A stretch of DNA of 64,000 nucleotides from a virus, in the IMG/VR virus record IMGVR_UViG_3300036715_002842, positions 1-64,000 of that record; one strand, given 5' to 3'. The position numbers and the translations under genes were made by a program. The notes under the pieces are model-generated. The model was not told the origin of the DNA and searched no databases. It saw only the letters and a list, made by a program, of their open reading frames with translations. The stretch's first letter is position 1, and the number at the start of each line of letters is the position of its first letter. Shown here piece after piece: positions 14,005-32,610 of the stretch.

Positions 14005-14500
14005 AGACGTAATCAGTTTGAAGGGGATCCTCGCGCAGGATCCCTTGTTCCTGCAAATCAATCAACAGGTCCCCTTGCTCATCAACGAATTAAATGCGAT
14101 GATGACCATGTCGATGCCAGTCTTGGATCTCAACCAAGCTGCGGTTGCCGATGCGAATCGCTGGATCACAACTCTCCAGGGGCATAGAGATAAGATCTGT
14201 CAGTACGAGATTACCCTTCGAACTTTCGAGTATCAGGTAGACAAGTACTGGTCCATCGCCTACAACATGTGCATGGTCCAACCTCAGATCGAAGGTTTGA
14301 GATCCAATGAGCACAAGAAAGCGTACATTGAGCAGGTCTTCAAAGATCTGATCGAGATGAAAAACTACGTTTCGATCAGTTTGAAGAAGCTCCAGATTAT
14401 CAGTGATAACATTCAGCAGGCTTACTACAGCTTCAGTGCCCAGCAGAAGAACGTGCAGCTACTGGCTACGGTCCATCGTTCGTATGGAACCCCGAACTAG
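13970..14500 (+). CDS. helical hypothetical protein
   Basis: 176-aa all-alpha/coiled-coil ORF; only a vague UvsY-like resemblance. Confidence 0.6.
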   Translation: MQQVLDSLLLNEDVISLKGILAQDPLFLQINQQVPLLINELNAMMTMSMPVLDLNQAAVADANRWITTLQGHRDKICQYEITLRTFEYQVDKYWSIAYNMCMVQPQIEGLRSNEHKKAYIEQVFKDLIEMKNYVSISLKKLQIISDNIQQAYYSFSAQQKNVQLLATVHRSYGTPN

Positions 14501-14844
14501 CAGCTTGTAACTTCCCCATTAGTTACGAAGCCATGCCAACCGCAAAGCTGACCTTCTACACAGGTACAGCCAGCACAATGGGTCTGTAAATGGACTGAAG
14601 GGGTGAGGGTTAGGTCATCAAAATCGGTTCCAACCATTCCCCATCTTGCCGGAGCTTCCCAAGATTCTGGAGTCGCTTGAGTGCTTGGGCAGATGACTAG
14701 GTGAGTTCCACGCGGTCCACCATTCGCTTGAAAACACTTAGGACATAAGAATCGAATCCCATTCGAATCGTGGATGGAGTCTCGTTTTCCAATTTTCATT
14801 CCATCCAGGAACACAAACCGGGGATCTAGGTCAGTTAGTCGCAT
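14497..14844 (-). CDS. DUF6527-like Cys/His protein
   Basis: FLCPKC...LTLTPSV...CGWHGFVTNG pattern. Confidence 0.6.
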   Translation of the reverse strand: MRLTDLDPRFVFLDGMKIGKRDSIHDSNGIRFLCPKCFQANGGPRGTHLVICPSTQATPESWEAPARWGMVGTDFDDLTLTPSVHLQTHCAGCTCVEGQLCGWHGFVTNGEVTSC

Positions 14845-15127: not shown

Positions 15128-15470
15128 GCTTGTGCCGTACGTAAGATGGCACACCAGCAGTTGTCTTCAATCGAGCGGTCGCCTCGTTCGCATAGTCCGG
15201 CTCTTCAAAGACTTCCGGTTCCTTTGCGTCCATCCAAGCTGGTCGATTCTTATTCCAACCGGCAAACTCAACGTAGCCTGCGTAATCGTGAGGAACACCA
15301 TCAATCACGATCTGGTAGCTCTTGGAAGATCCCGGTACCCACAGTTCAGGCTGATCCTGTAGCCACTGAAGTACGTAACCTTCAGGTCGCTTTTCTAGAA
15401 TTCGGTACTTGGATTGTTCGAGGGTTTCCTGCCAAGCCTGCTTGAGAACCGCTGCAATATGAAGCTTCAT
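15111..15470 (-). CDS. hypothetical protein (MKLHIAA leader)
   Basis: ORF coupled to upstream stop. Confidence 0.6.
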   Translation of the reverse strand: MKLHIAAVLKQAWQETLEQSKYRILEKRPEGYVLQWLQDQPELWVPGSSKSYQIVIDGVPHDYAGYVEFAGWNKNRPAWMDAKEPEVFEEPDYANEATARLKTTAGVPSYVRHKHAKAR

Positions 15471-15952
15471 TTTTCCACCTGAATGAATGTCCTACTGTTA
15501 TCCTTCTCGAGGATGTCGATGAAGTCTTCTGGGACTCTTGCATTGTCCGGGAAGGTGTATCCACATTCTTTTTCGATTGATGCTGAGTACTCAGTGCAGA
15601 TCCACCCGCTCTCATTGTACCCTTGCTTCAAGCCGGCTCGAATGGCATCTACGAAGGAATAGGGCTCCATCATATGTTCCATCGCTTGCTTCTCTGCTTC
15701 CGGAGTCCATGTAAGGTTCATCTGAACAATGGTATCTGGTAGTCTCATGGAGAGAGGTACCATGCGTACACCACCGATAGCACTTGCTTCGAGCAAGAAA
15801 ACTCGCCCGGCGATGCACCAGATGGTCCCCACGTGGCTGTACTTTGAATGTGTCCACCACTTGATCAGCTTGTCTCCCAGTTTCTCGTGGCTGGAGTAGA
15901 AAGCCAGATCACCAGACTTTAACTGTTCGCGGATGTCTTCATACTTGGCCAC
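15467..15952 (-). CDS. permuted papain-like NlpC/P60 (YiiX/YebB-type) amidase
   Basis: LKSGDL, YSHVG (His), WICTE (Cys) in permuted order. Confidence 0.8.
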   Translation of the reverse strand: MAKYEDIREQLKSGDLAFYSSHEKLGDKLIKWWTHSKYSHVGTIWCIAGRVFLLEASAIGGVRMVPLSMRLPDTIVQMNLTWTPEAEKQAMEHMMEPYSFVDAIRAGLKQGYNESGWICTEYSASIEKECGYTFPDNARVPEDFIDILEKDNSRTFIQVEK

Positions 15953-15991: not shown

Positions 15992-18900
15992 TTAATCACT
16001 AGAGGCCGTGGCAGACTTTTTACCAGAACTCGTGGCATTGACAGTGATGGTAAGATCCTGAGTAACTGTATCACCCGCGGCATTAGTAACGGTGAGTGTG
16101 TAGGTGGTATTTGAAGAAAGTGCTGGGGTGGTGAACCCTGTGGTAACTGCACCGATTCCATTATTGACAGATCCTGTACCACCACTGAACGTGGTTGTTA
16201 CTACTGCGGTAGTGCCACTGAAAACTGGGTTGGGTGTAGCGGAGAAGGCTGAGATTGTTGGCATTGCTACGACTGTTGCTGTTGTTGTTGCGGTTTTAGA
16301 ACCATCTGCGGCGGAGGTGGCGGTGATGGTGTAGGAACCGGGGGTTGCTGGAGCAGTATAAACGGTATTCACTCCAGTTGCGGTAGAGATTGGAGAGAAG
16401 GTTCCACCGGTTGCAGTCCAGTTGATGCTAGTGTTCACCGCGCCAGAAATGGTTGAACTAAATGTCTTGTTGTGGCTTACGGAAACGGTGAAGTTCTGGA
16501 GGGAGATGGCTCCCACAACTACGGTCTGAGGTGTGATAGTTAAGTTACCGCTCATGGTATAGCCGGTGATTGAAGTAATCTTGCCGTAGTAAATGGTCTG
16601 AGTCACAAACCCACTTGCTTGAACTGCGTAGGGGGTACCACTTACAGCGCTCGCAGTGATTTCAGAACCACCAACGGTTGTTCCAATACTCTTGTTACCC
16701 GTCAAGGTTCCAGTGTAGGTCATTGTAAGGGTTACATTGGTTGCACCATAAAGAGGAGACATAGTGCTTGCTACCATTGTTAATGTTGGTAGTGCGTAGA
16801 CTATTGCAGTGGTTGAATTTGTCTTTGTAGGATCTGCAACGGATGTTGCGGTGATAGTGTAAGTTCCGGGAGTCGCTGGAATATTCCAAGTTGCTCCAGT
16901 GAAGGAACCGCCGGTTGCGGACCAGGTTACCGCGGTATTAGCAGCACCCGTCACGTTCGCGAGGTAGATCTGGGTTTGACTTACGTTTACGTTCGCGGTG
17001 GCAGGACTGGGAACTCCTACCGCTACGGTCTGAGGAGTAACCGTTACGGAGTAATCCGCTGTTGTACCTGCTAGGTTGGAGACTCTCAGGTAATAGGTCT
17101 TGGCAACTGTGAAGCCAGAAGCCTGTACAGTGATGGGAGTTCCGGAAGTTGCTGCAGCGGAGATATCAGATCCGCCCAGAGTAGTCCCAACAATCGCGGA
17201 GGAGCCGGTCCAGGTCGGTGTTACGGTTGTGGTCGTTGCCCCATAGAGGGGAGAAGTAGTGCTCGCAGCAATCGAACCTGTGGGGTTTGCAACTGTGGTA
17301 ACAGTCGTTGTATTGGTGGAAGTTCCATTCGCTGCGGCGGTTGCCGTCAAGGTGTAGGTTCCAATACTTGCGGGGGCGGTCCAAGAAGTTGCCACCCCAC
17401 TTGCGGTAGAGATTGGAGAGAAGGTTCCACCGGTTGCAGTCCAGTTGATGTTAGTGTTCACCGCACCCGAAACCGTGGTGCTTACGTTTCTCGAAGTGCT
17501 TACGGTCTGGTATCCACCACCACCGGTGATTGCAGCCACAGATACCGTTTGAGGTGTGATGGTTACAGATGCATCGGCAGTTGTTCCGGGAACGTTAGTT
17601 CCTCTTGCGTAGTAGGTGGTAGCCGCGGTGAACCCGCCAGCTTGAACTGCCAGGGCAACTCCAGAAGTAGCCGAAGCAGAGATCTGGGTACCTCCGACAG
17701 ATGTACCTACGGTGATTGAGGTAGTTCCACCACTACCGGTTGGCGTTACGGTTACGTTCGTTGCCCCATAAAGAGGTGAAGTAGTACTTGCGGCGAGGGA
17801 GATTCCTGGGAGTGCGTAAACATTGACGGTTGTGGAATTGGTGGTAGAACCATCTGCAGCAGAAGTGGCAGTGATGGTGTAGGAACCGGGGGTTGCTGGA
17901 GCTGTCCACGTAGTTGTCGCACCGCTTGCGGTAGAGGTTGGAGAGAAGGATCCACCGGTTGCTGACCAGTTGATGTTGGTGTTTACTGCGCCGGTTACCG
18001 TTGCACTATAAGCCTGGGTCTGGCTCACGTTCACATTCGCTGCGGCTGGAGATGGAATGCTGACGGACGGCCACTGGGGATTTGTTGTGACGCTGCTTGC
18101 GAGGTAGGTAGCTCCAACGGAGTTTGTTACTATAAGGATGTACGTCCCCTGATTAACGAATCCAGTGGGCTGTACTGGTAAGGCAACCCCAGAAGTAGCG
18201 TTCGAGGAGATTTCGGAACCAGTTCCATTGAGAACTCCGACCGTTGCAGTTGCTCCAGCAGTGAAAGTTGGGGTAACCGTTACGTCAGTCGCACCATAGA
18301 GAGGGTTGTTGGTGCTCATTGTGAGCGAACCAGTTGGTAGAGCGACCAAGGTAATGGTTGAGGTTGCAGACTTGGTTCCATCTGCAACGCAGGTCGCTGT
18401 CGCAGTCTTGGCACCAGCGGTAAGTCCACCATAGTAGAAATACCCATCCGAACGGTAGGTTCCTGCCGACTGGGAGAAGGAAACCGATGTGTTTGCTGCA
18501 CCACTTACGGTTGGGGTAATCAGAATGTCGCACTTGAGGAATTGCGTTGCTGAGGTGTTCACCTGCAGTTGGACATGATCAAAATCTAGTTCGAGATTCA
18601 GTCCACTGTAGCAGTTATTCACTGACATGAACCACTGAAGAACCTTAGCGGTGGTGCACATCCACTTGACACTATAACGTTGCCACACGGTAGCGCTAAG
18701 AGGTGGATTCTCCAACCACACGATATTTTCTGGTGCCTGATTCCATGCATCAAAGAATCCTGCACCAGTTGCAGAAAGTCTGCCGCGTGCGTAGAAGCTC
18801 AGGGTATACCAGGTACTGAGTGCGTAAGCACCAATCCAGAAGGCATTTCCATCTGCGGCGGATAGTCCGAAAGTATTGATGGTTGTGTTGTGAGTGAATC

Positions 18901-20926
18901 TTACAAAAGGTCCACCATCCACACCGCCAGTTGCTTGGTAAGATGAAGTCGCTCCACCACCATTGTCGTAGATGGAGTAGTAGGTCATCCCGTTATCAAA
19001 AGATCCATCGCACATCAGATTGACTGAGACTGATCTCGATGCGGACGTTGGACTTACTGCTACTGAAACTGTCTGAGGAGTAATGGTTACACTGGAATCC
19101 GCTGCTGCAAAGGCATGATTGTAGGTTCTTGCCCAGTAAGTTGTTGCTGCAGTAAATCCGCCAGTCTGAACTCCAATCGGAGTACCAGAAGTAGCCGTCG
19201 AAGAAACCTGGGATCCACCTTGATTGGTACCAACGTAGATGAGATAGGGATCTCCTCCACCAGTTGGGGTAACAGTTACATTCGTTGCCCCATAAAGAGG
19301 TGAAGTAGTACTTGCGGAGATGGAGGAGGTAGGTACCGCGTAGACATAAACCGAGGTCGAAGCGGACTTTGTTGGATCTGTTACCGATGTAGCTGTAATG
19401 GTATAGGTTGCTTGACCCGAGCCGAAGGTTGGCGCAGTCCAATTAGCACCGGCAAAGGATCCACCACTGCAAGACCAGGTAACTGCGGAACTAACCCCTC
19501 CAGAAGCTGAAGCAGAAAATGCTACGACTTCTCCGCAGGTTCGATTTGTATTTGAAGGGGTTGGGGTACTCACTGAAACTGTTTGTGGGGTAATCGTTAC
19601 GCTAGCATCTGCTACGGTACTAGCGGCATTGAACACTCGTGTCCAGTAGGTCTGGGCAGTAGTAAATCCGCCTGTCTGTACTCCAACTGCCGCATTGTTG
19701 GTAGCGTTCGTCGAAATCTGCACTCCACCCTGCGTTGTGCCGAGGTAGATGCCATAAACACTTCCACCACCCGTTGGAGTAATGGTTACGTTCGTCGCAC
19801 CATAGAGTGGATTTGTGGTGCTCGCAGCAAGAGAAGCTGTTGGTGCGGCAATTACTGTTGTATATGAATCGTTCGTTACTCCATTCGCTGCGGCGGTAGC
19901 ACGAACGTAGTAGGATCCAGTAGTTCCTGGGGCGGTGAAAGTTGTCGAATCGCCGGATGCAGGGGATACGGATCCACCTGCTGGGGCAGACCAGTTGATT
20001 GTGGTGTTCACCGCACCGGATACACTAGCAGTTACTCCAGCCGAAGTACCCACAGTCATGTATGTTGGAAGAGCAACGGAATAGGTAATTGAAGGTGTTT
20101 GAGGTGTAATTGTTACGCTAGCGTCTGCAACTCCGCCACCGTAGGAGGAGTATCTATTCCAATAGGTAGTTGAGGTTACGAACCCTCCTGTTTGAACTCC
20201 GATAGCGGATGAGTAAGGAGACGCGGAACTGAAAATATTTCCGGAACCCTGGGAGGTTCCAACCTGGGTTGCTGCAATTGAACCGGTGCCACCAGGGGTT
20301 ACCGTTACGTTCGTCGCACCATAAAGAGGTGAGGTGGTGCTTGCAGTAATAGTTGCAGTCGGAATCGCAGTTACGGAAAGATTCACGTTACTTGAAGCTC
20401 CGGTCCCCGAAGCGGTTGTGGCATAAATGACGACTGTTTGTGGAGATGTTGGAGGGGTGTAAGTAGTCGTACCTCCGCTCGCAGTTGTAGATGGGGAGAA
20501 GGATCCGCCGGAAGCGCAGGACCAATTGATATTTGAATTTGATGCACCAGATACGGTTGCTGAGAAGGTACAAGTTCTATTAGTATCGCAATAGTTGCTA
20601 CTAGGAGTAATTGCTGAAACTGCTGGGGTTTGTACTGTTACAGTTTGGGAACCAGAACCAGTTCCACCTGAAGTTGTAACACTCATTACACCAGATGTAT
20701 TCTGAGCTACGGTTCCAGTGATAGTGATGGTTGTATCGTTCGTTACTGTAAATGCAATAGAAGTGGTTCCAATCTTAACTACGGTTGCGCCAGTGAATCC
20801 GCTACCCGTAACAGTCCAACCAGTCTGACCATAGAGAGGTGAAGTTGTCGATACACTGGAGACAACCGGTACTCCAGAGTAGGTTCCTAGGATGTAGGTC
20901 TCGTATACATTAAGAGTTGCGGTCAT
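15992..20926 (-). CDS. giant Thr/Ser-rich repeat fibre/adhesin with Ig-like repeats and a carbohydrate-binding-like insert
   Basis: About 7 repeats of ASTTSPLYGATNVTVTP...GF...ADASVTITPQTV alternating with GAVNTxINW Ig-like units; central NLMCDGSFD...YTLSFYAR...WQRYSV CBM-like domain. Confidence 0.75.
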   Translation of the reverse strand: MTATLNVYETYILGTYSGVPVVSSVSTTSPLYGQTGWTVTGSGFTGATVVKIGTTSIAFTVTNDTTITITGTVAQNTSGVMSVTTSGGTGSGSQTVTVQTPAVSAITPSSNYCDTNRTCTFSATVSGASNSNINWSCASGGSFSPSTTASGGTTTYTPPTSPQTVVIYATTASGTGASSNVNLSVTAIPTATITASTTSPLYGATNVTVTPGGTGSIAATQVGTSQGSGNIFSSASPYSSAIGVQTGGFVTSTTYWNRYSSYGGGVADASVTITPQTPSITYSVALPTYMTVGTSAGVTASVSGAVNTTINWSAPAGGSVSPASGDSTTFTAPGTTGSYYVRATAAANGVTNDSYTTVIAAPTASLAASTTNPLYGATNVTITPTGGGSVYGIYLGTTQGGVQISTNATNNAAVGVQTGGFTTAQTYWTRVFNAASTVADASVTITPQTVSVSTPTPSNTNRTCGEVVAFSASASGGVSSAVTWSCSGGSFAGANWTAPTFGSGQATYTITATSVTDPTKSASTSVYVYAVPTSSISASTTSPLYGATNVTVTPTGGGDPYLIYVGTNQGGSQVSSTATSGTPIGVQTGGFTAATTYWARTYNHAFAAADSSVTITPQTVSVAVSPTSASRSVSVNLMCDGSFDNGMTYYSIYDNGGGATSSYQATGGVDGGPFVRFTHNTTINTFGLSAADGNAFWIGAYALSTWYTLSFYARGRLSATGAGFFDAWNQAPENIVWLENPPLSATVWQRYSVKWMCTTAKVLQWFMSVNNCYSGLNLELDFDHVQLQVNTSATQFLKCDILITPTVSGAANTSVSFSQSAGTYRSDGYFYYGGLTAGAKTATATCVADGTKSATSTITLVALPTGSLTMSTNNPLYGATDVTVTPTFTAGATATVGVLNGTGSEISSNATSGVALPVQPTGFVNQGTYILIVTNSVGATYLASSVTTNPQWPSVSIPSPAAANVNVSQTQAYSATVTGAVNTNINWSATGGSFSPTSTASGATTTWTAPATPGSYTITATSAADGSTTNSTTVNVYALPGISLAASTTSPLYGATNVTVTPTGSGGTTSITVGTSVGGTQISASATSGVALAVQAGGFTAATTYYARGTNVPGTTADASVTITPQTVSVAAITGGGGYQTVSTSRNVSTTVSGAVNTNINWTATGGTFSPISTASGVATSWTAPASIGTYTLTATAAANGTSTNTTTVTTVANPTGSIAASTTSPLYGATTTTVTPTWTGSSAIVGTTLGGSDISAAATSGTPITVQASGFTVAKTYYLRVSNLAGTTADYSVTVTPQTVAVGVPSPATANVNVSQTQIYLANVTGAANTAVTWSATGGSFTGATWNIPATPGTYTITATSVADPTKTNSTTAIVYALPTLTMVASTMSPLYGATNVTLTMTYTGTLTGNKSIGTTVGGSEITASAVSGTPYAVQASGFVTQTIYYGKITSITGYTMSGNLTITPQTVVVGAISLQNFTVSVSHNKTFSSTISGAVNTSINWTATGGTFSPISTATGVNTVYTAPATPGSYTITATSAADGSKTATTTATVVAMPTISAFSATPNPVFSGTTAVVTTTFSGGTGSVNNGIGAVTTGFTTPALSSNTTYTLTVTNAAGDTVTQDLTITVNATSSGKKSATASSD

Positions 20927-20937
20927 ATGTCAGAACC

Positions 20938-21408
20938 TCATCCAAGGTTGATGCAGCAAGCGTCCCCACGGGCACATCCACCGGTATAGTTCGATGCACC
21001 GTACACGGCAAATCTTACCTTTACGTAGGTTAAATTCTGGGCAGCAGATAGAGTGTAAGTAGGAACTGGGGTGATTCTTGTAGTGGTGTGTGCAGTATAG
21101 TCAGAGAACATATTAGTCCAAGTTACGTTTGTTGAATCCACGCTCACATCAATGTTAATATACGCGTTGTCATAGGTACCATCAACCAAAGTAGTACTTA
21201 TATCCGTATACAGAACCAAAGCGGTATAGGTTTGAGTTGCTGCCGCCCAAGCCTGAAGTGTGTAATATCCAACAGTTGGCGCTTGAAGGGTAGAAGCCAA
21301 TTTCTGCATTGTTGCCGCATCAGCACTATTTCCGTTGTAAGCAAATGTTGGATTTGTGATACCGGTAACGCTAGCCCAGGCAGTTGGATATAGATTAATT
21401 GTTGACAT
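20938..21408 (-). CDS. beta-rich protein with Cys-rich C-terminal tail (GGCARGDACCINLG)
   Basis: 156-aa ORF abutting the rSAM stop; its three Cys are all in the last 12 aa. Confidence 0.7.
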   Translation of the reverse strand: MSTINLYPTAWASVTGITNPTFAYNGNSADAATMQKLASTLQAPTVGYYTLQAWAAATQTYTALVLYTDISTTLVDGTYDNAYINIDVSVDSTNVTWTNMFSDYTAHTTTRITPVPTYTLSAAQNLTYVKVRFAVYGASNYTGGCARGDACCINLG

Positions 21409-22779
21409 TTAAGACCTCACTTCAACTGGGCCATGTGAAAGCTTCCGGTATGTTTCAACCATCTGTTCTTTCCGAACTTCAATCGCTGACAGAAGGGAAT
21501 CCCTCTTCAGCCCACAGTAGAAATCCCTTGTTTTGATTGAACCATTTTCCACGTAACAACCACCCTGACAATTGTATTTAGCAACGCAGGTCTGACATTC
21601 CGTATAGCAGGCAGTTTCAAGATTGAGAACATTCCAGATCTTCTCCATATCCAATTCAAATTCTTTGGTTTCTGGATCGAACTGGCCAACGATTAAATTA
21701 TCGGTGTAAGTTCCATTTTCCGTTGAGATTCTGTGGCACGTTGTAATGAGCCCATTGTTCAAGAAGGTCATGGAAGAACTTGGATCAGTCGCACCACATC
21801 CAGAAAATCTTGTTTTGAAAACTGAGGTATGATCTAAGTCGGTGTCAGATACAACTGCCCACTTCTTCCCAACCGATCGTTCCTTTAGTCTCTTCCAAGC
21901 TTCAACATAGACATCCACATCGTGCATCCCCTGAGGATCTGTATCGGAGTGATATGCCGCCATGTTGAGAACTAAACGAGAATTTGGATGCCTGGGAGTT
22001 TTCTGAGCCTCGATCCATCCATCGAATCCTTCTTGTTCCTGAAGCCAGTCTAGAAAGTCAGCAACGGATTCAAGTTCGGAAACCATGGGAACCGTGAGAG
22101 TTCCACGTAGATTGAAGAAGATCTTATGTTTCAGTAGGAGCAAGATTCCATTCACCGCAGCATTGAATGTTCCGGAACCATCCAATCTCTGGCGTTGACT
22201 ATTTTGAAGGATGGGGCTTCCATCAAAAGATGCCACGATCTGGTTGAAGTACTTCGCAATCTGCTCTATGTTTCCTTCATTGATCAGGGTTAGGTTGGTG
22301 GTCATTGCCATCGAACCAACTCTACCGGTTGCGAAGAGTTTTTCACTGAAAGCGAAAAGGCGGTTCCCGATGGTGAGGGTCTCCCCTTGAGGAATGAAGT
22401 TGATGTGAAGTTCTTCTTCACCCTCATCCTCAACCACAAGATCAGCTTTACGAATCACGTTCAGAATCGCCTCTTCCATGTCCTCGGAAAGGACAGGTTC
22501 ATCCGGTCTCGTATGAGCATCTGCAGCGTAGCAGTAAGTGCAAGCCAAGTTGCACTTTGAGGTCATTGAGATCTTAAATGATTTGATTTTTCTCAGATTG
22601 AAAGCGAGATCTGTTTCTGGTTTTGGGTTGGGCTGGAATTTGAAAGTCGGCGCTTCATTTGCCGGTACAAGGCACTTGAAGAAGGGATAGAAAACGTAAT
22701 CACCGTCAGATAACGTAATCGGGTAACCCGGATTCGGGTTTACACTTGTCGTTACCTCTTCCGTGGTCCAGTTAGGCAT
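21409..22779 (-). CDS. radical SAM / SPASM-domain enzyme
   Basis: CNLACTYC; MTTN, ASFDG; SPASM CGA...TCH...CQTCVAKYNCQGGC...YC; probable start MPNW at 22779. Confidence 0.9.
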   Translation of the reverse strand: MPNWTTEEVTTSVNPNPGYPITLSDGDYVFYPFFKCLVPANEAPTFKFQPNPKPETDLAFNLRKIKSFKISMTSKCNLACTYCYAADAHTRPDEPVLSEDMEEAILNVIRKADLVVEDEGEEELHINFIPQGETLTIGNRLFAFSEKLFATGRVGSMAMTTNLTLINEGNIEQIAKYFNQIVASFDGSPILQNSQRQRLDGSGTFNAAVNGILLLLKHKIFFNLRGTLTVPMVSELESVADFLDWLQEQEGFDGWIEAQKTPRHPNSRLVLNMAAYHSDTDPQGMHDVDVYVEAWKRLKERSVGKKWAVVSDTDLDHTSVFKTRFSGCGATDPSSSMTFLNNGLITTCHRISTENGTYTDNLIVGQFDPETKEFELDMEKIWNVLNLETACYTECQTCVAKYNCQGGCYVENGSIKTRDFYCGLKRDSLLSAIEVRKEQMVETYRKLSHGPVEVRS

Positions 22780-23128
22780 GAGGCTCCCCAAGTGGAATGC
22801 CACTCGCAATCGCCTCAGCTCTGAACTGCTCTTTTGAAATATCGGCGGGCAAAAGTGCCTTGAGAATGCACATCCTACATTCTTTTGTACCGCGAGCAAA
22901 ATCTCTGCAGGTTTGAGGACGTATATCGTAAACCTTGCAGTTTCCGTTTTCATCCAAGGCCAGACAAGATCCATTTTCATTCGCACCCATCGCATTTCCG
23001 AAAGGGGTGCTCACTAAATATTCATCTGGAATTTCCGAGGTACGATCAACATAGATGGTGTTGTTGATTGAATGGCAGCACTCGCCACACCCTTCACAAG
23101 AAGTTGGGACAATTATTTCTGTAGCCAT
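22772..23128 (-). CDS. YkgJ-family (CxxCxxCC) putative Fe-S/zinc protein
   Basis: CEGCGECC...CLAL...CKVYDIRPQTCRDF. Confidence 0.85.
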   Translation of the reverse strand: MATEIIVPTSCEGCGECCHSINNTIYVDRTSEIPDEYLVSTPFGNAMGANENGSCLALDENGNCKVYDIRPQTCRDFARGTKECRMCILKALLPADISKEQFRAEAIASGIPLGEPHA

Positions 23129-23159: not shown

Positions 23160-26100
23160 TTAAACGGTTTGTTCAATGTCAAGCTGGACGGTTACACCTG
23201 CGGCGGTTCCGGCTACCGAACAGACAGCGGTGATAGAATCTCCTGCTGCAATTGCTACACTCAAACCAGTGTAACGATCGGTCCAAGCTGTAGCGGAATC
23301 CGTACCCAGTAAGGTTAGAGTTCCGTAGGATGCAATGGTCGTACCATTGATCTTGATCAGGAGGGTACCGGTTCCAGGAGTCTGAGACTGAGTACGAATT
23401 GCCTTCAGAGTGCCGGCAGCATCTGCTCTATACGCAGGCTGAAGAACGGTTGTGGTGAGTGCTGCTTCGTAGAACCAACGGAGAGGGGCCTTGATCACTG
23501 GCTTACTTGTAACACCGGACCAGGGCACCGATCCGGCACTACCATCAATGTTCACACCGGTCAAGGACTGAGCTGCGGAAGACCGGTTCGCTGCGATCGC
23601 GGTAGTACCTACGTAGTGAACCTGTGCGACGGTGGCGAACGCCGATGCATGCAGACCATCCAGAAGATCTGCGTTCAGGTTTGCTACAACGGTCTGAGAG
23701 GATACTGCAAGAGGTGCTGTACCAGTTGCTACACCAGAAATCAGAATGTTGGCTTGGAAGGATCCATTCGTTGTGAGTGCAGCTACGCCAGTTCTTGCAA
23801 GAGTGGTATCTGCTGCCCCAGTACCGCTTGCCCAGTAAATCGTACCACTCTGGTCAATAGAAATTCTGTAGGTTGTATCCCCCGTTTGTCCTGCGAGGTA
23901 AGCTCCGGTACCGGCGGTACCGTAGGCGTTGAACGCGGCACCATAGTTTGTTCCAATGTAGAACTTACCCGTTACAGTTACATCACCGTTAGTGTTAACA
24001 CTTAGACCCTTCGCGGCAGAAATTGTTGCATCCGTGTAATCTACCATTGCGGAGCTCTGATAGAGCTTGATCTGGCTTGCAGTAATTGCCAAACCACCTT
24101 CAGTGTTGCCGGTCTTGAATAGTGCAACTACGGGGGACTGGTTCGAGGAATTACCGCCAAACACCTTTAAGATGTTCTGCTGATTACCACTAGCCGTACC
24201 GACATAGAGGGTGCCAGCGGTGTTTCCATTTGAATTGACAACCACGTTGTTGGTGAAGCTAATGTTGTTTGTTCCAGTTGGAACTACAGCAATGTATCCA
24301 GAGTTGGCTGGATTGATCAGACTGAAATCGTAGGAAGTTCCGGTACTTGCTTGTAAGACCAACCCCTGAGAAGCTGTAGTTGTTAAGGATGCATGGGAAC
24401 CGCCGGTGACCCAGTAAGAAGGTGCCATCATCGCACCAGTGCAGGTCAAGGTAGTGTTGAAAGTTGAACCGCCTGAACCGATCAGGACCCAAGCGGTTCC
24501 AGTCAGAACTGAACCAACGTTACCGGCAGTAGGCTGACCGATCCACATCTGATTAGAAGTGTTAATACCCCAACCGATCGCAGTGGAACCGGCACGTGTC
24601 ATTCCAAAGTAGGTGTAGTTCGAAGTTGTAGGCGCGGTTACGGAAATGGCACCGTATGGATCTGGGCTTGCAGTATTGGATCCAACTTGAACAAATCCAT
24701 TACCGCCAGCGTTGGTTGAGAATCCAGCGGCGGTTACATTTCCAGTAGAAGTCACTGCGGGTACCGCAAGATTTGCTGAAGTCAAGGACATCCAAGCCAC
24801 AGACTGTGCTTGGTTCGTCCACTGGAATCCACCTGCGTCCACTCCAGCAATGAATCTTGTGATATTATTCGTATCGTTGGTCAACAAGAAAAGTGAAACC
24901 GTGGAACCTCCGGAAGTGGTTCCTTTGATTCCGCCGGCGTTAATGAATTGAATACTACCCATCCCGGTCACTACGGTTGTTGTTGTACCCAAGGCCATCG
25001 CAGTTGAACCAAGCGTCACTGAGGAGCTGGTTAGGGCACTGCTGGGAATTCCAGTGAAGTTGGTTCCGGTAAGAACTGGGGCAGTTGAAGGAAGGATGTA
25101 TCCCTGAGCTTTGACAAACGCAGTCGTTGCGATGGTTGTTGAATTATTCGCGGTCAGTGGGGTAGGTGCTGCAGGGGTACCTGTGAAGGTTGGAGAATCC
25201 AGGGGAGCCGCACCGGTTACCTGAGCTACTGTGTAGTCACCGCTGGTTGCAACAACCACACCAGTTCTTCCAAAGACAGTTACTACCTCAGTCGGTACCC
25301 CATCAATTCCGTCCCACGTGGTGCCATTGAAGACAATCATGTCTCCGACTTTCCACGTGGAAACTCCATCGATTAAGGTACTACCTGCAACGCTCACCTT
25401 GTAGTAGTAGCCCTTAGTACCAACTCCTGAAGCTAGGGCCGGAGAGTTGGTAGAAGCGTTCCACACCCCCTGGTAAACAAGCGCTCCAGAGACTGCGTTC
25501 AACTGTGCTTGTACTTTACCAAAGGCTGCAAGAATCGTATCTGTTGCGGCTACGGAAACGGCAGATCCTACGGAGAAGCCAGTCAGAACCTTGCCAGTGA
25601 CGGTTGCAGCGGCCAGGGTAGTAGTGATGGCGGTAGCACCGGAGCCAGTTACGTCCCCAGTAAGGGTTACAGTCTGGTTGGCGCTAATGTAGCCGCTTGG
25701 GTTCGTCGCGTTGTATGGGGTGTATCCCAACGCAGTAGTTACCTGACTAGAGGTAAGGGTACCACCATATACTCCAGTGATGGTTGCTGCGGAACCCGTG
25801 ATGCTGATTCCCCACGAACCAGAAGCTCCAGTACCTGTCAGAGAAGGTGCACCCACCTGGGCGGCGGTTGGAGTTGAGTAGGAGAAGGTTCCAGTTCCAT
25901 TGTTGTAGAGCCAACCCACTGCGTTAACCAGACCACCAATGGAAGTCAGGTTAGTGTTGAGAGGCTGGCGAGAAGTATCAGAAGGATGTACGTGTGCACC
26001 ATCAGCCCACTTACCAGAAGCTCCTATCGCCGCGGTACCATCCATATTCGGAACTGTGATGGCTACCACTGGAATCGCGGTGACATTCGCCGGGGTGTAT

Positions 26101-26399
26101 CCCAACGCAGTAGTCACCATCAGAGAAGTGATGCCCGTGATGTAGTTGCTTGGGTTCGTTGCATTGTAGGGCGTGAAGCCCAACGCATTCGTAACCTGGA
26201 GCGATGTGATGCTTGAGACTGCGCCAGCAGTTAGAGAGGCCGCGGTGCCGGTCAAGCCAGTTCCAGGACCACTGAACTGGGTCGTCGCAGTGATAGTGGA
26301 ACCAGAGATGGTCCCGAATGTTCCATTGCCCGTGGCATCAATCACACCTGTTGGTGTTGTACCTACGGATAGTCCTAGTCTCGCATTGAAAGCTGACAT
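23160..26399 (-). CDS. tail fibre protein
   Basis: Gly/Thr-rich; YQGVWNASTNSP, SPTFTGTPAAPT, NLNADLLDGLHAS fibre motifs. Confidence 0.8.
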   Translation of the reverse strand: MSAFNARLGLSVGTTPTGVIDATGNGTFGTISGSTITATTQFSGPGTGLTGTAASLTAGAVSSITSLQVTNALGFTPYNATNPSNYITGITSLMVTTALGYTPANVTAIPVVAITVPNMDGTAAIGASGKWADGAHVHPSDTSRQPLNTNLTSIGGLVNAVGWLYNNGTGTFSYSTPTAAQVGAPSLTGTGASGSWGISITGSAATITGVYGGTLTSSQVTTALGYTPYNATNPSGYISANQTVTLTGDVTGSGATAITTTLAAATVTGKVLTGFSVGSAVSVAATDTILAAFGKVQAQLNAVSGALVYQGVWNASTNSPALASGVGTKGYYYKVSVAGSTLIDGVSTWKVGDMIVFNGTTWDGIDGVPTEVVTVFGRTGVVVATSGDYTVAQVTGAAPLDSPTFTGTPAAPTPLTANNSTTIATTAFVKAQGYILPSTAPVLTGTNFTGIPSSALTSSSVTLGSTAMALGTTTTVVTGMGSIQFINAGGIKGTTSGGSTVSLFLLTNDTNNITRFIAGVDAGGFQWTNQAQSVAWMSLTSANLAVPAVTSTGNVTAAGFSTNAGGNGFVQVGSNTASPDPYGAISVTAPTTSNYTYFGMTRAGSTAIGWGINTSNQMWIGQPTAGNVGSVLTGTAWVLIGSGGSTFNTTLTCTGAMMAPSYWVTGGSHASLTTTASQGLVLQASTGTSYDFSLINPANSGYIAVVPTGTNNISFTNNVVVNSNGNTAGTLYVGTASGNQQNILKVFGGNSSNQSPVVALFKTGNTEGGLAITASQIKLYQSSAMVDYTDATISAAKGLSVNTNGDVTVTGKFYIGTNYGAAFNAYGTAGTGAYLAGQTGDTTYRISIDQSGTIYWASGTGAADTTLARTGVAALTTNGSFQANILISGVATGTAPLAVSSQTVVANLNADLLDGLHASAFATVAQVHYVGTTAIAANRSSAAQSLTGVNIDGSAGSVPWSGVTSKPVIKAPLRWFYEAALTTTVLQPAYRADAAGTLKAIRTQSQTPGTGTLLIKINGTTIASYGTLTLLGTDSATAWTDRYTGLSVAIAAGDSITAVCSVAGTAAGVTVQLDIEQTV

Positions 26400-26428: not shown

Positions 26429-29400
26429 TTAGATTGTGATTGCGGTTACTGCTACCTTGAAGACTGAAGAGTTGGCGGAAGTTGGTGTCACCAGAAGCTT
26501 CATGTTGGTTCCATCTGCCACCACGGAGAAGGCACCTACCTGACCGCCGATCTGGACGGATCCGAACTCGGTGTAGTCTGCTGAGGTGCTTCCATTGTGA
26601 ACTGCAAGAATCTTCGTGGTCTGGTACTTGCCACCGGTTGCATCCACCGCCTGGATCTGGAATTCTGCAGATCTGAATGTTGCCTGTGGAATGCTTGCGA
26701 TCTGCTGACCGGCGGTTGTAGCCGTGGAGGTCAGGGTATAGGTATCGATGTTGGCGAAGTCCACGTTCAAGGTGGTCAGGGTACCAACAGAGGTGATGGC
26801 TGGCTGAGCTGCTGTAGTGACGGTTCCAGCGGTTGTTGCTGTGGAAGCATTACCACTCAGGACACCAGTGAAGGTGGTAGCTGTTACACTTGTCAGACCG
26901 GCAAGAGTGGTAGTTGTAGCACCCAAGGCAACCGCGGTAGAACCAATCGTCACCGAGGAGTTAGATAGTGCACCGTTTGGAATGCTGGTGAAGTTGGTAC
27001 CGGTCAGAGTGGGGGCGGTTCCTGGAGCAACATAATCTGCTGCTGTTGCGGCAGAGATGGCAGTTCCATTACCCTTGAGCAGACCCGAGATCGAAGTGGA
27101 GAGGGTAATGACTGGCGAGGAGGTTGCAGAGGCTACCGAACCTGCAAAGCCGTTCGCAGTTGCCACGGACAGGGTAGTGACGGTTCCGGGTGCTGCTGTA
27201 ACCTGTGCCTGCAGTTTACCGAAAGCAGTCAGAATCGAATCTGTTGCTGCTACCGCTGTTGCAGTTCCCAAGGTGTAGTTTGTTAGAACCTTACCAGTGA
27301 CTGTTGTAGCGGCCAGGGTTGTGGCGTTCCCGACCGAGGTAACATCTCCAGTCAGGTTGGCGTTGGTCACTACAGTTGTAGCGTTTCCAACTGAGGTCAC
27401 CATGCCAGTCAGGTTGGCGTTAGTCGTAACTGTTGCGGCATTGCCATCGATGCTGGTGATACCAGTAAGAGCAATCGAACCAGAAACCCGATTGATTGCA
27501 ATCTGCGTGGTACCTAGATAGAAGGTTTGACCTACCGCGGCCTTCGCAGCAAGATCCGTCACGAGGTTCGAAACACCAGATTCTGGAATGCCGGTGAAGT
27601 TGGTACCGGTCAGAGTAGGTGCTGTGGAGTAGGATGGGGTTGCGCCACCTACAAGGACCCCGGATCCAGTTGCCAGCATGGTTGTGGCACCAGAACCAGT
27701 CTGGTAAGGAATGGATCCTGCAGCGCCACCAGTGATGTTGGTTGCAGTTGTAGCCGTTGTTGCATTGCCAGTCAGGGCACCCACGAAGGTGGTGGAGGTT
27801 ACACTTGTCAGACCTGCAAGGGTGGTAGAAGTTGCACCCAAAGCAATCGCGGTGGAACCCACGGTCACAGAGGAGTTGGTCAGTGCCCCATTGGGAATGT
27901 TCGTTAAGCTAGCGCCGGAACCGCTGAAGGCCAAAGCTACCAGTGTGCCAGTTGCAGGGTAGAAGTACAATCTCGAAGCCGATACTTTAGGAGCAAGGTT
28001 ACCAGTAGAACCATCCACCATAACAAGGCTGAAGGCTGTTGCCGTGGTCGTATCGTTCGTAACACCCACGTTCGTAGCGTTTGTGGCACTCGCAGCGGAT
28101 CCGGTGATGCTGATTCCCCAGTTACCGGATGCACCAGTACCGGTTGTTGTGGGCGCTCCGATGTCACTAGGAACGTAGGCCAAGAGGGTCTTGATCTGGG
28201 CAACGGTCAGATCCGCTGCGTTAGCAGTCAGACCAGTGTTATTACCCTTGAGAGTATTTGCTGCCATCTGAGCGGACATGGCATTCGTGACCACGTTCGT
28301 TGAGGTAGTGTAGACTCCATTGGTGACCGTTGCTGCGTTACCCGTTGTGCTCTGGTTCAGGATCGGGAAGTCAGCTGCGACTGCAATTGTAAGAGCGCCA
28401 GTCGTGGTAGTGCTCTTTAGGATACCAGTTCCCAGGGCCGAGGTGCCTGCGGAGTAGTCAACCCCAGCAGTTGCGGCAACCAAGGCAGAACCACTACCCT
28501 TGAGCATTCCAGAGATGGAAGTTGTAAGGGTAATCGCTGGAGTGGTACCCGCGTTGGCAACGGAGCCGCCGAACCCATTCGCGGAAACAACGGATAGGGT
28601 GGTGACAGTTCCATTCGTTGTGGAATATGTTGTGGTATCCAATGCCCAGGTATCTGCCGCGGTTTTCTTCAGGAAGCCGGAGGTTCCTGCGAGGTTCGCG
28701 ATGGCGGTGAGGTCTCCATCCAGTGCCTGGTAGCTACCACTTACCTGTTTGTTGTTCAGCTGGGCTTGAACGTTCTGGAACGCAGTGAGTACTGAATCCG
28801 TTGCTGCGATGGGGGTATTAGCACCTGCTACCAATCCGGTAAGAGTTGCTCCACGCACGCTGGTGTTGAAGTCTGTCCAAGCCTTCAAGCCATTCCAGTA
28901 CTGAGCAGAAGTGCCACCGGTAATCGTAGGCTCCTTCGCAGTCAGGTCAGAAACCATTGCGAAGGTGCCACTTGCATCCGGGAGGGTGAACTGTCTTGCG
29001 GCGGTTGCGGTAGAGATTACTTCAGAGCTGAAGGCGGTTGCGCTGGGCGTCAGGAGGATGGTGCCGAGCTTCCCTGGAGCAAGGAAACTCCAGGAAGACC
29101 GGGTATTCCCGATCTTGGCGTACCCAGTGATGGATCCACCCTCTTCGATCTCAATACCAGCAGAGTCCCCCGAAGCTGCCGCACCACCTTTGTTGAGCGT
29201 GATGAGCTTATCGGTCACGGTCATATTTGTTACGTTGTTGTAAACCAGGGTACCGGAGATGTTAACTGTGTCGCCAGCGCCACCAATATTAATGGTGGTG
29301 ACTCCTGCTCCGGTTCCAATGTTCACTGTCTGCGTGGTTGCTGCCGTACCGAGATTTACGATCGAGGCCCAGTTGGTGCCTAGATCTAGGGTTCCAGTGT

Positions 29401-31453
29401 TTACGTAAGCGTCCAGGGCGCCAGTGTGAACGATACCAGAGAAATAAGGGCTATCTGTAGGCGCCTTCGCATTGAAAGTCGTCCAATCTGCTGAGAGAAG
29501 GTAACCGGCAACAAGTTCTGTTGCCGCGGGCATCGAAATGACTGGGGTATTGCCACCTGTCGATTGTACTGGGGATGTAGCTGTGACGGATGTAACTGTG
29601 CCACCGGAGTTTGGTGGGGTTGCGAACGTACCATCTGCGCGGAGGAAGTCTGTGGTGTTGGAAACAACCCCAGGTACCAAGCCCTTTGAAGTTCCAAAGA
29701 CCGGCAACAGTGCTGCAACCTGAGCGGCAGAAAGTGCTTCAACGTTCCCAGTTCCCGCAGTAGTTCTTGCGAGGAAGGTTCCAGATGCTATCTGTGCGAG
29801 GTTGCTGAGAATAACTTTGTTGGTTCCGATGGTTGTTGCATTACCGACCGAGGTAACATCCCCGGTCAGATTGGCGTTGGTCACCACCGTCGTAGCGTTT
29901 CCAACCGAGGTAACATCCCCGGTCAGATTGGCGTTGGTCACCACCGTCGTAGCGTTTCCAACCGAGGTCACCATGCCAGTCAGGTTTGCGTTGGTCACTA
30001 CGGTTGCTGCGAACGTACCAGTTCCAGAACCGGTAACTCCACCTGTCAGCGTGATGGTCTGATCACCAGTGTTCGTTCCAGATACGGATCCACTTGCAGG
30101 AACTGTCAGCGTTGCAGAAGCAGTACCACCACCGATGGAGAAGCCATTCGCGAGGGAATTGAAAGCCAGTCCATTGATTGAAGCAGCTATTGCATTGCCC
30201 AGGTTTGGTGTAACAAGTACCGGAGAATTAAGATTCGCCTTCAGATTTAGTGCTGTCTGGGTGGCAGTTGAAATTGGCTTGTTCAGGTCCGAGGTGTCAT
30301 CCACATTCCCCAGACCCACGCTAGCAGCAGTAATCGTTGGAGTGCTGATAACTCCACTTGCATCGATTGAAATGTTTGTTCCCTGCTTTACCCCACCCAG
30401 AACTGTTGCAGAAGCAACTGGCAGGGTATAGTTATTTGCACCCGCTGCGATACCATCCAGCTTCGCAGCGTAGGTGGAAGTCATATAGCCATTGACCGAA
30501 GCGGTTGCCGCGGCCATGGAAATGACTGGAGCCGAACCGCCGCTTGAATCTACCGGCGCGGTTGCTGTCACACCAGTTACGTAGACCGTTGTGTCTAAGG
30601 ACCATGTATCGACGGCAGTCTTTTTCAAAAGACCGGAAGTACCTGCTAGAGCTGCAATCGAAGTGAGATCCGCATCTAGCGGTTGTGCGTCCGTGATTCC
30701 GTAACCGGACAGGGAAGTTGGATTGGTTCCTGCTGTTACTCTTCCCTTTGTATCAACAGTTACGGACTTGTAGGTTCCGGCGGTTACTACGTTTGGAAGC
30801 GAGAGAGTGATTGCAGTTGTACCTGATCCAGTAACGTCTCCTGTTACAGTGATAGTCTGATTACCTGTGATGTAGCCACTGGGGTTGGTGCTATTGTAAG
30901 GAGTGAAGCCCAGTGCGTTAGTGACATCAGTTGACAGAAGGGTCACAGCACCGGAACGGGTATTGAAGGAATCTACTTTGGAACCTACGATCGATGCTGC
31001 TGGGGTATTGACCCACGCCAGACCAGTCCACTGAAGCACATCTGTATTGCCCTTAGTACCCACATTCACATTCGAAAGGTTCTCAAGGATGTGGGTGTGG
31101 GTGAGTGCCGCTGCGTCTGTGATTCCATACCCTGCGAGTGTAGTGGGATTGGTTCCACCGGTTACCCGACCTTTACTATCCACAGTTACAGACTTATACG
31201 TACCAGCGGTTACCCCAGATGCTGAAAGGGTAAGAGCCACGCTGGAGGATCCAGAACCCGTAACATCCCCAGTGTAGGTGAGAACTGGAATCCCACCGAT
31301 AACAGCGACGGCACTTCCAGATCCATTCTTGTAATAAAGGTCCCCACCAGGTCCAAAGGAAAAGAGAGACTCATTTGGATAGCTGGACAGATCTGGAAAT
31401 TTAGGGCCGAGTTGGAGGTACTTGGGTCCACGTAGTGGGGCAACGAGTTTCAT
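26429..31453 (-). CDS. long tail fibre protein
   Basis: VTAGTYKSVTVDSKGRVT, LAGYGITDA, DADLTSIAAL repeats typical of phage fibres. Confidence 0.85.
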   Translation of the reverse strand: MKLVAPLRGPKYLQLGPKFPDLSSYPNESLFSFGPGGDLYYKNGSGSAVAVIGGIPVLTYTGDVTGSGSSSVALTLSASGVTAGTYKSVTVDSKGRVTGGTNPTTLAGYGITDAAALTHTHILENLSNVNVGTKGNTDVLQWTGLAWVNTPAASIVGSKVDSFNTRSGAVTLLSTDVTNALGFTPYNSTNPSGYITGNQTITVTGDVTGSGTTAITLSLPNVVTAGTYKSVTVDTKGRVTAGTNPTSLSGYGITDAQPLDADLTSIAALAGTSGLLKKTAVDTWSLDTTVYVTGVTATAPVDSSGGSAPVISMAAATASVNGYMTSTYAAKLDGIAAGANNYTLPVASATVLGGVKQGTNISIDASGVISTPTITAASVGLGNVDDTSDLNKPISTATQTALNLKANLNSPVLVTPNLGNAIAASINGLAFNSLANGFSIGGGTASATLTVPASGSVSGTNTGDQTITLTGGVTGSGTGTFAATVVTNANLTGMVTSVGNATTVVTNANLTGDVTSVGNATTVVTNANLTGDVTSVGNATTIGTNKVILSNLAQIASGTFLARTTAGTGNVEALSAAQVAALLPVFGTSKGLVPGVVSNTTDFLRADGTFATPPNSGGTVTSVTATSPVQSTGGNTPVISMPAATELVAGYLLSADWTTFNAKAPTDSPYFSGIVHTGALDAYVNTGTLDLGTNWASIVNLGTAATTQTVNIGTGAGVTTINIGGAGDTVNISGTLVYNNVTNMTVTDKLITLNKGGAAASGDSAGIEIEEGGSITGYAKIGNTRSSWSFLAPGKLGTILLTPSATAFSSEVISTATAARQFTLPDASGTFAMVSDLTAKEPTITGGTSAQYWNGLKAWTDFNTSVRGATLTGLVAGANTPIAATDSVLTAFQNVQAQLNNKQVSGSYQALDGDLTAIANLAGTSGFLKKTAADTWALDTTTYSTTNGTVTTLSVVSANGFGGSVANAGTTPAITLTTSISGMLKGSGSALVAATAGVDYSAGTSALGTGILKSTTTTGALTIAVAADFPILNQSTTGNAATVTNGVYTTSTNVVTNAMSAQMAANTLKGNNTGLTANAADLTVAQIKTLLAYVPSDIGAPTTTGTGASGNWGISITGSAASATNATNVGVTNDTTTATAFSLVMVDGSTGNLAPKVSASRLYFYPATGTLVALAFSGSGASLTNIPNGALTNSSVTVGSTAIALGATSTTLAGLTSVTSTTFVGALTGNATTATTATNITGGAAGSIPYQTGSGATTMLATGSGVLVGGATPSYSTAPTLTGTNFTGIPESGVSNLVTDLAAKAAVGQTFYLGTTQIAINRVSGSIALTGITSIDGNAATVTTNANLTGMVTSVGNATTVVTNANLTGDVTSVGNATTLAATTVTGKVLTNYTLGTATAVAATDSILTAFGKLQAQVTAAPGTVTTLSVATANGFAGSVASATSSPVITLSTSISGLLKGNGTAISAATAADYVAPGTAPTLTGTNFTSIPNGALSNSSVTIGSTAVALGATTTTLAGLTSVTATTFTGVLSGNASTATTAGTVTTAAQPAITSVGTLTTLNVDFANIDTYTLTSTATTAGQQIASIPQATFRSAEFQIQAVDATGGKYQTTKILAVHNGSTSADYTEFGSVQIGGQVGAFSVVADGTNMKLLVTPTSANSSVFKVAVTAITI
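29847..30000. repeat. 57-bp (19-aa) tandem repeat x3 in fibre gene
   Basis: Units start at 29847, 29904 and 29961, encoding GNATTVVTNANLTGDVTSV; related copies at about 27320-27440. Confidence 0.85.
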
Positions 31454-31520: not shown

Positions 31521-31546
31521 AAAAAAGGGGTCCCGAAGGACCCCTT
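31521..31546 (-). terminator. intrinsic terminator closing the tRNA operon
   Basis: On minus strand AAGGGGTCC-TTCG-GGACCCCTTTTTT. Confidence 0.85.
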
Positions 31547-32051: not shown

Positions 32052-32126
32052 TGGTGCCCCCGGTGGGGTTCGAACCCACGACCTGAAGATTATGAGCCAT
32101 CTGCTCTGCCGCTGAGCTACAGGGGT
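32052..32126 (-). tRNA. tRNA-Ile2/Met (CAT)
   Basis: Cloverleaf, loop CTCATAA, CCA end; A1:C72 mismatch. Confidence 0.85.
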
Positions 32127-32168
32127 ATTGGTATATTGGTTTGACTTGAGGAAAGATGGATTTCGGAA

Positions 32169-32252
32169 TGGTACCCCTTCTCGGACTCGAACCGAGACGC
32201 TCGAAAGCATAGGACCTAAACCTATTGACTGGACCAATTCGTCTAAAGGGGC
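32169..32252 (-). tRNA. tRNA-Leu (TAG)
   Basis: ATAGG-TTTAGGT-CCTAT, long V arm, CCA. Confidence 0.9.
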
Positions 32253-32515: not shown

Positions 32516-32591
32516 TGGAGCCCACAACCGGGTTCGAACCGATGACCTCCTGATTACAAAGCAGGTGCTCTACCAACTGAGCTATGCAGGC
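32516..32591 (-). tRNA. tRNA-Thr (TGT)
   Basis: Loop TTTGTAA, GGTTCGAACCC T arm, CCA. Confidence 0.85.
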
Positions 32592-32610
32592 AAAGGTGTC
32601 GGACTGAAAC

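Follow-up and report, generated by a model that had tools for sequence, protein, structure and literature searches.

Here we describe a minus-strand operon in which an enzyme of the radical S-adenosylmethionine (SAM)/SPASM class is encoded among tail-fibre-like genes, directly upstream of a 156-amino-acid (aa) protein, p156, whose Cys residues all lie in a short C-terminal tail. The operon lies in the first 64 kb (the window) of a 105,575-bp IMG/VR virus contig, record IMGVR_UViG_3300036715_002842. With some reserve, we consider it likely that the enzyme, referred to here as rSAM, is a PapB/CteB-like thioether synthase that makes intramolecular thioethers in the p156 tail. The pairing of enzyme and Cys-tailed protein is kept in both of the nearest lineages, and in both the Cys are confined to the tail within C-x3-D motifs. 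The genes of the operon and the predicted modified region are as follows.

26429-31453, minus strand: g1674, first gene of the operon, 1674 aa, fibre-like (tail fibre module matches; phrog_5181)
23160-26399, minus strand: g1079, 1079 aa, fibre-like (tail fibre and minor tail module matches)
22772-23128, minus strand: YkgJ-type CxxCxxCC protein, 118 aa, nine Cys (PF03692)
21409-22779, minus strand: radical SAM/SPASM enzyme rSAM, 456 aa, PapB/CteB-like (Pfam, NCBIfam, fold and cluster Cys)
20938-21408, minus strand: p156, 156 aa, candidate substrate with a probable beta-sandwich domain and a Cys tail (Cys distribution and homologues)
20941-20982, minus strand: predicted modified tail of p156, residues 143-156, GGCARGDACCINLG (C-x3-D and C-terminal C-x3-G)
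15992-20926, minus strand: g1644, giant Ig-repeat protein, 1644 aa (I-set match)

All six genes are co-oriented, in the order g1674, g1079, YkgJ, rSAM, p156, g1644. A 29-nt gap separates g1674 from g1079, and 31 nt separate g1079 from the YkgJ gene. The YkgJ and rSAM genes overlap by 8 nt (ATGCCTAA), the rSAM stop directly abuts the p156 start (TAA-ATG), and an 11-nt gap precedes g1644. A GAGG-type ribosome-binding site stands at every start in the operon, and none of the gaps between genes is able to hide a small precursor gene. These coordinates and junctions bear out the sequence-only reading, which had described the fibre, YkgJ, rSAM, 156-aa and giant genes as co-oriented and overlapping or closely spaced.

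The longest rSAM open reading frame (ORF) begins at 22995, but translation more likely starts from the ATG at 22779, because a GGGGAG site lies 5 nt upstream of it and the 87%-identical protein P0001 from a sister contig starts there too. The enzyme scores 30.5 bits against PF04055 (cut-off 29.5), a narrow margin that is backed by NCBIfam alignments and a fold match. Its radical SAM CX3CX2C motif is at C76/C80/C83. The seven-Cys SPASM pattern for two auxiliary clusters, taken as CX9-15GX4C, gap, CX2CX5CX3C, gap, C, is found as C328-x14-G343-x4-C348, C395-x2-C398-x5-C404-x3-C408 and C422. All three radical SAM and seven SPASM Cys are invariant among 20 aligned relatives, and the Pfam SPASM model gave no report for the protein at E <= 0.01. 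The NCBIfam models that match align with the enzyme end to end. The best is PapB (NF047865; 1.1e-26, 93.9 bits, cut-off 340), followed by QhpD (TIGR03906; 68.7 bits, cut-off 453), the SCIFF maturase, DynA, Nif11 and anSME (TIGR03942; 56 bits, cut-off 349), all far below their curated cut-offs. PapB is thus the best family by score, and by the same scores rSAM is not a member of the PapB equivalog NF047865. The best PDB sequence match is CteB (5wgg, E 1.3e-10). An AlphaFold model built from 20 sequences, with a predicted local distance difference test (pLDDT) value of 72, matches CteB with a template modelling (TM) score of 0.66, and anSME and ChlB with TM of about 0.58 normalised to the query and 0.70 to the target. 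The matches to CteB and anSME extend over the full length. Taken together, the PF04055 score, cluster Cys, NCBIfam matches and fold confirm the enzyme class that had been read from the sequence. Three confident beta-strands (residues 19-39) precede the catalytic core; the helices that complete the RiPP (ribosomally made, post-translationally modified peptide) recognition element in relatives are missing from both the alignment and the model.

p156 contains exactly three Cys, at positions 145, 151 and 152, all within the last 12 residues, in agreement with the earlier observation that its Cys are restricted to the tail. The whole 105.6-kb contig has 116 ORFs, and no other carries three or more Cys that are all confined to its final 25 residues; just two Cys are so placed in three others, a 266-aa ORF and two short ones of 60 and 68 aa. 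The tail combines C145-x3-D149 with C152-x3-G156 at the C-terminus itself. The remainder of the protein has no Pfam, PHROG or NCBIfam match. In the ESM Atlas, p156 lies near F5/8 type C and CBM32 clusters, with a feature score of 0.91 to F5_F8_type_C. Its structural model is of low confidence (pLDDT 59.5, and below 50 for residues 138-156), and Foldseek matches are weak, with TM at or below 0.44. With VIA, IFT25, CBM61, CBM32 and the CBD of a cyanophage short tail fibre matched at Z of 6.3-8.2, values that the tool counts as within noise. All of these weak fold matches are galactose-binding-like jelly rolls. As a lead, the p156 domain is probably a beta-sandwich of galactose-binding-like or carbohydrate-binding module type, and the low model confidence of residues 138-156 suggests a flexible tail.

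Close relatives of the locus are very rare. Among 50,697 GenBank phage records, neither nucleotide nor protein searches brought up anything close to the cassette, p156 or g1644, and the relatives of rSAM there are at most 29% identical. Single-protein scans of IMG/VR with rSAM and with p156 gave no matches, and a degenerate DNA pattern for a C..GD.CCI.LG-stop tail was absent from that collection. For the JGI metagenomes, a first scan found nothing and a second found only relatives with at most 30% identity over a substantial stretch, mostly bacterial-looking and with uninformative neighbours. The sister lineage is a single Logan contig of 10315 bp, with proteins 89% (YkgJ, P0024), 87% (rSAM, P0001) and 74% (p156, P0023) identical to those of the window. 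The P0023 tail, GGCSRGDSCCIQLG, has the same plan as that of p156, including CSRGD, and again has Gly-Gly before the first Cys.

An exhaustive phmmer search with p156 against 1.84 billion representative proteins gave only two further relatives. P0025, of 154 aa, is 26% identical to p156 (E 2.2e-4) and is encoded on a 278,785-bp, 95%-complete phage contig (locus L071, genome G001). It has exactly three Cys, all in the last 21 residues, in CNVKD, CSFGD and CIYPD, and no Gly-Gly before the tail. By eye, C152-INL-G156 of p156 lines up with the last of these motifs, C-IYP-D. Asp stands at +4 of 13 of the 415 Cys (3.1%) in the ORFs of the window's phage, and the chance of three of three Cys with Asp at +4 is about 3e-5. 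P0026, a 340-aa protein from a JGI metagenome that was not located in IMG/VR, appears to consist of two tandem p156-type domains without a Cys tail.

The L071 enzyme is a 423-aa radical SAM/SPASM protein, 39% identical to the full length of the 456-aa rSAM (E 3e-101), and its gene overlaps that of P0025 by 11 nt. PapB is again its best NCBIfam family (98.6 bits, cut-off 340), and the phage enzymes score 69-77 bits against QhpD (cut-off 453). The gene before it encodes a DUF2793 tail-fibre-type protein. After P0025 come a TIG-domain protein and then an Ig-repeat giant of 1428 aa, which is homologous to the remainder of g1644, so that the L071 order (fibre C-terminal domain, rSAM, small protein, TIG, Ig giant) is the order seen here. 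Neighbouring L071 genes match several tail fiber PHROGs. Beyond these lineages, 36 of 65 distant viral radical SAM/SPASM loci have a same-strand ORF with at least three Cys in its last 30 residues within five ORFs. The expectation that rSAM homologues sit next to Cys-tailed genes thus held in both nearest lineages, the sister contig and L071.

For the chemistry, PapB provides the closest model. PapB cross-links Cys to Asp or Glu in C-x3-D/E motifs; the acceptor must be C-terminal to the Cys, and many spacings are tolerated (PMC9413430). In a synthetic leader-CSANG substrate, PapB also links Cys to the C-terminal Gly, abstracting a hydrogen next to the terminal carboxylate (PMC12373016). Because the p156 tail offers both geometries (C145-ARG-D149 and C152-INL-G156), two rings and a spare thiol are predicted. 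In the proposed mechanism, p156 would be translated in the reducing cytoplasm, after which rSAM would act on its flexible C-terminal tail, cleaving SAM and abstracting a hydrogen from the carbon next to a carboxylate. That carbon would then be joined to the sulfur of an upstream Cys. Ring 1 would connect Cys145 to Asp149 and enclose A-R-G, and ring 2 would join the alpha-carbon of Gly156, the C-terminal residue, to Cys152 (or Cys151), for a net change of -4 Da with one free thiol left. p156 would most likely be a fibre-associated adhesin or adaptor, with one of two docking sites: the C-terminal domain conserved in the upstream fibre, or the conserved N-terminus of the giant Ig-repeat protein encoded downstream. 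Being non-reducible, the staple would hold the tail in shape and protect it outside the cell. Protein-sized substrates are known from the thioethers of CrpC/CrpA (PMC13692751) and from QhpC, whose crosslinks a radical SAM enzyme makes beforehand (PMC7876137).

The most detailed form of this proposal has one enzyme placing two carboxylate-directed thioethers on a lectin-like virion accessory protein, namely a Cys145-Asp149 ranthionine displaying Arg-Gly and a Cys to C-terminal-Gly alpha-thioether, with YkgJ as electron donor or second modifier. We regard it as unlikely in its entirety. If true, the virion would bear an adhesin that is stapled enzymatically and has a new natural macrocycle at its C-terminus. 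The RGD within the p156 tail was rejected as a functional integrin-type motif, because P0025 does not share it; it probably arises as a side effect of C-x-x-G-D.

The YkgJ protein scores 46.4 bits against PF03692 (E 6.4e-12, cut-off 23), which confirms its earlier assignment to this Fe-S-type family. Its Cys are at 11, 14, 17 and 18, then 55, 64, 74, 84 and 87. Neither the protein nor the PF03692 model found a match in G001 (95% complete) or in G002, in a search that recovers the window's own copy. Because it is absent from a 95%-complete relative, YkgJ is, as far as these genomes indicate, a lineage-specific accessory and not part of the core of the system. In the window, the overlap couples its translation to that of rSAM. 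YkgJ was also rejected as a general partner of SPASM maturases, since none of the 65 viral loci has a neighbouring YkgJ motif. Four matches near SPASM genes in 78 metagenome loci look like wrong-frame or antisense readings. Its most likely role, tentatively, is as a small Fe-S electron donor to rSAM. Alternatively, by analogy, it could be a FliB/DpdM-like Fe-S methyltransferase acting on the same proteins. FliB, which has a Cys-rich N-terminal motif of the same kind, carries a [4Fe-4S] cluster and methylates lysines on the flagellin surface, thereby modifying a surface filament protein in the cytoplasm before assembly (PMC8598068). DpdM, a phage homologue of E. coli YkgJ, is a proposed preQ1 methyltransferase (bioRxiv 10.1101/2023.04.13.536721). 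Compared with FliB, the 118-aa phage protein is a bare Cys-cluster domain with the motif CX2CX2CC instead of CX4CX3CC, and methyl transfer is a candidate activity drawn from likeness to FliB and DpdM.

Several points weigh against thioether formation in the p156 tail. The support is purely computational, and the presence of p156 in the virion is inferred. rSAM falls far below the PapB cut-off, SPASM enzymes perform many chemistries, and both ChlB, a cyclophane former, and anSME fit the model almost as well as CteB. The enzyme is without the helical part of the recognition element by which a substrate might be recognised. For a C-terminal Gly as acceptor, the only PapB precedent is a synthetic substrate. 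p156 has one C-x3-D motif, compared to three in P0025, and its Cys151 is without an obvious acceptor. The p156 model is poor, with fold matches (Z at or below 8.2) in the common range. The comparative signal is thin, with only two independent lineages of the clade in the collections searched, and synteny in the sister is deduced from the identical length (10315 bp) of the contig reported for each protein.

If the enzyme and its target are correctly paired, the reaction could still be a different one, such as sactionine formation (Cys to alpha-carbon), a carbon-carbon cyclophane, epimerisation, or oxidation of Cys to formylglycine or a related product. The SPASM fold is common to anSME, ChlB, SuiB and others, two of which match the rSAM model nearly as well as CteB does, and with all NCBIfam scores so far below cut-off no equivalog is assigned. 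What substrates at 26% identity conserve, however, is Asp at the fourth position after Cys, the signature of ranthipeptides. The anSME motif C/S-x-P/A-x-R is found in none of the three tails (p156, P0023 and P0025), and an aromatic-x-x triceptide motif around the conserved positions is in neither p156 nor P0025. An anSME-type reaction was rejected because its substrate motif is absent, and we consider a different chemistry in general improbable. The locus could also encode a true RiPP, with the 142-residue domain as an oversized leader that is cut after Gly-Gly 143-144, freeing a stapled 12-mer at lysis that acts against the host or competitors. This would fit the Gly-Gly pair before the first Cys here and in the sister, as well as the Nif11 maturase model among the NCBIfam matches. 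Long leaders of the Nif11/NHLP type exist. Against it, P0025 does not have the Gly-Gly, the conserved neighbours are fibre proteins, and the cassette conserves no C39-type peptidase or exporter, though a host protease might do the cutting. In G001, the homologue of a weakly papain-like protein that is encoded after g1644 here is some 120 kb away from the rSAM cassette. The N-terminal domain appears to be a folded sandwich, and it occurs without a Cys tail in P0026. A strict RiPP system would have a leader-binding recognition element and proteolytic release of the core; here the recognition element is reduced to its three-stranded sheet, and the cassette has no conserved protease or exporter. 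Modification of a protein is favoured over a released RiPP because no protease or exporter is conserved, the Gly-Gly is missing in P0025, and the domain occurs without the tail in P0026; we give the RiPP a slim chance. The sequence-only reading had suggested a RiPP-like modification of a virion receptor-binding component. The kept pairing and the C-x3-D motifs support the modification of a Cys-tailed protein that may be fibre-associated, and perhaps receptor-binding; a true RiPP seems less likely.

Adjacency of the genes could instead be misleading, if the tail Cys bind metal or form disulfides while rSAM, with YkgJ, acts on a giant fibre protein or a small molecule. Tight packing of phage genes is common regardless of function, g1644 has ten Cys and g1079 two, and rSAM has no recognition-element helices for leader binding. 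However, no C-x3-D/E motif occurs anywhere in the operon giants, g1674 is free of Cys, and there is no intergenic room for a small precursor gene. The enzyme and Cys-tailed genes are also still adjacent at 39% and 26% identity, respectively, and a chance association is in our view quite doubtful. Finally, YkgJ and rSAM could belong to a nucleic-acid modification system of the 7-deazaguanine pathway instead of modifying protein. This phage encodes a Gat-QueC fusion at 10560-12350 (minus strand), and DpdM would be a precedent for a YkgJ homologue in this pathway. However, rSAM is of the full SPASM peptide-maturase type and is not QueE-like, the phage YkgJ matches PF03692 while DpdM is described as DUF3109, and the YkgJ gene lies within the fibre operon and overlaps the SPASM gene. 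This possibility is very remote. Intramolecular thioethers in the p156 tail are the most likely reading.

The giants flanking the cassette were earlier taken to be fibres or adhesins. This identity is plausible rather than proven, as it rests on short modules shared with annotated tail proteins and on the homology of g1644 to a PHROG-matching protein. In g1674, residues 37-287 share 48-80% identity with stretches of proteins annotated as tail fiber or tail in phages of Sphaerotilus, Ralstonia and Bacillus. For g1079, residues 290-369 resemble proteins of 117 phage records that are annotated as minor tail, tail fiber or "chaperone of endosialidase", and the C-terminal ~115 residues (23163-23507) share 39-41% identity with the C-terminal end of the DUF2793 fibre protein at L071:8030-8731. 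The repeats of g1644, which has an I-set match in Pfam, are 38-39% identical to L071:11154-15440, a match to phrog_2155 "virion structural protein". PDB sequence searches with g1674, g1079 and g1644 found no match. The N-terminal module of g1644 (residues 7-195; 20342-20908) is 41% identical to the TIG protein at L071:10515-11141. This TIG-type module is fused to the Ig-repeat giant here and is a separate 208-aa gene in L071. Its first residues are conserved (VYETYILGTY in g1644, VYDAWIEGNW in L071) and may be where the Cys-tailed protein docks. The L071 tail-fibre gene cluster also contains a gene for a PAS-PAS-GGDEF diguanylate cyclase (L071:4541-5941).

The labels on g161, the first gene after g1644 (15467-15952, minus strand), are weak and disagree: in Pfam it matches Peptidase_C92, a permuted papain-like amidase, below cut-off (E 1.4e-3), and in PHROGs phrog_1128 "enoyl-CoA hydratase-like" (4e-14). 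g161 was rejected as a dedicated leader protease on account of the distant position of its G001 homologue given above. Also downstream of the fibre operon is a 115-aa protein with eight Cys and a DUF6527 match (14497-14844, minus strand; E 1.5e-5). On the upstream side, the operon appears to be set apart from the tRNA array by a strong hairpin, which on its sequence would close the upstream tRNA operon.

31525-31546, minus strand: terminator-like hairpin, read from 31546 to 31525, with a 9-bp stem including six GC pairs, followed by a T run

CheckV estimates the 105,575-bp contig to be 38% complete, which implies a full genome of about 280 kb and a jumbo phage. The window contains 12 tRNA genes, an amber-suppressor-type tRNA and a tmRNA, and it also encodes an RNA ligase and a helicase, in addition to Gat-QueC and a ribonucleotide reductase. 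The amber-suppressor-like tRNA, with anticodon CTA, is at 51639-51711 (minus strand), is labeled tRNA-Pyl by ARAGORN, and stands away from the main array of tRNA genes at 32052-36872. The large subunit of the ribonucleotide reductase (5579-10276, minus strand) carries an inserted HNH endonuclease-like segment at residues ~573-743.

Besides FliB and DpdM, four known systems resemble the phage locus in part. PapB, a three-cluster radical SAM/SPASM enzyme that acts on PapA to make the ranthipeptide freyrasin (PMC9413430, PMC12373016), belongs to the best-scoring family for both phage enzymes. The PapB-type substrate motif, Cys-x3-Asp/Glu with the acceptor C-terminal to the donor, is present in p156 (CARGD), P0023 (CSRGD) and P0025. 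The phage enzymes differ in scoring 94-99 bits against the cut-off of 340, and the window's enzyme in its missing recognition-element helices. Where PapA is a short peptide with six motifs, the candidate phage substrate is a folded protein of 156 aa, with one to three of them across the homologues, and the phage genes are in a fibre operon without a protease or exporter. In Methanococcus voltae, the SPASM enzyme CrpC installs ranthionine crosslinks on CrpA, a Cys-rich protein of the same cluster, and so acts at the protein level (PMC13692751). This likeness is by description and not by sequence comparison, and the system is archaeal and cellular, with a Cys-rich substrate and an enzyme predicted to have a recognition element, whereas the phage protein has only three Cys in a terminal tail. 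QhpD, the second-best NCBIfam match, pre-forms intra-peptidyl crosslinks in QhpC, a subunit that stays in the larger quinohaemoprotein amine dehydrogenase complex (TIGR03906; PMC7876137). QhpC is an enzyme subunit with a quinone cofactor, and the phage locus is without a QhpG-like partner. CteB (SCIFF maturase; 5WGG/5WHY; TIGR03974) is a thioether-forming SPASM enzyme and the best PDB match of rSAM by both sequence and fold. It shares 17% identity with rSAM in the fold alignment, has a full winged-helix recognition element, and modifies CteA, a six-Cys peptide of ~45 aa.

We found no paper in the literature on radical SAM modification of a phage fibre or virion protein, and one cyanophage paper interprets such a radical SAM gene as "antibiotic synthesis". 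New here are the four-part synteny that links two lineages, a reduced tail whose C-terminal Gly is a candidate natural acceptor, a recognition element that is truncated, and YkgJ as an accessory.

So far, radical SAM thioether chemistry has been associated with small antimicrobial peptides and very few cellular proteins. The locus offers a compact test case, with one enzyme, a 156-aa candidate substrate with three Cys, and a clear mass prediction. It is also a candidate natural case of Cys to C-terminal-Gly macrocyclisation, which is otherwise found only in vitro, with YkgJ as a possible physiological partner of a SPASM enzyme. If the modification does occur on a folded, fibre-associated protein, virions would carry a covalent modification that is invisible to proteomics and structure prediction, and which could influence host recognition or particle stability.

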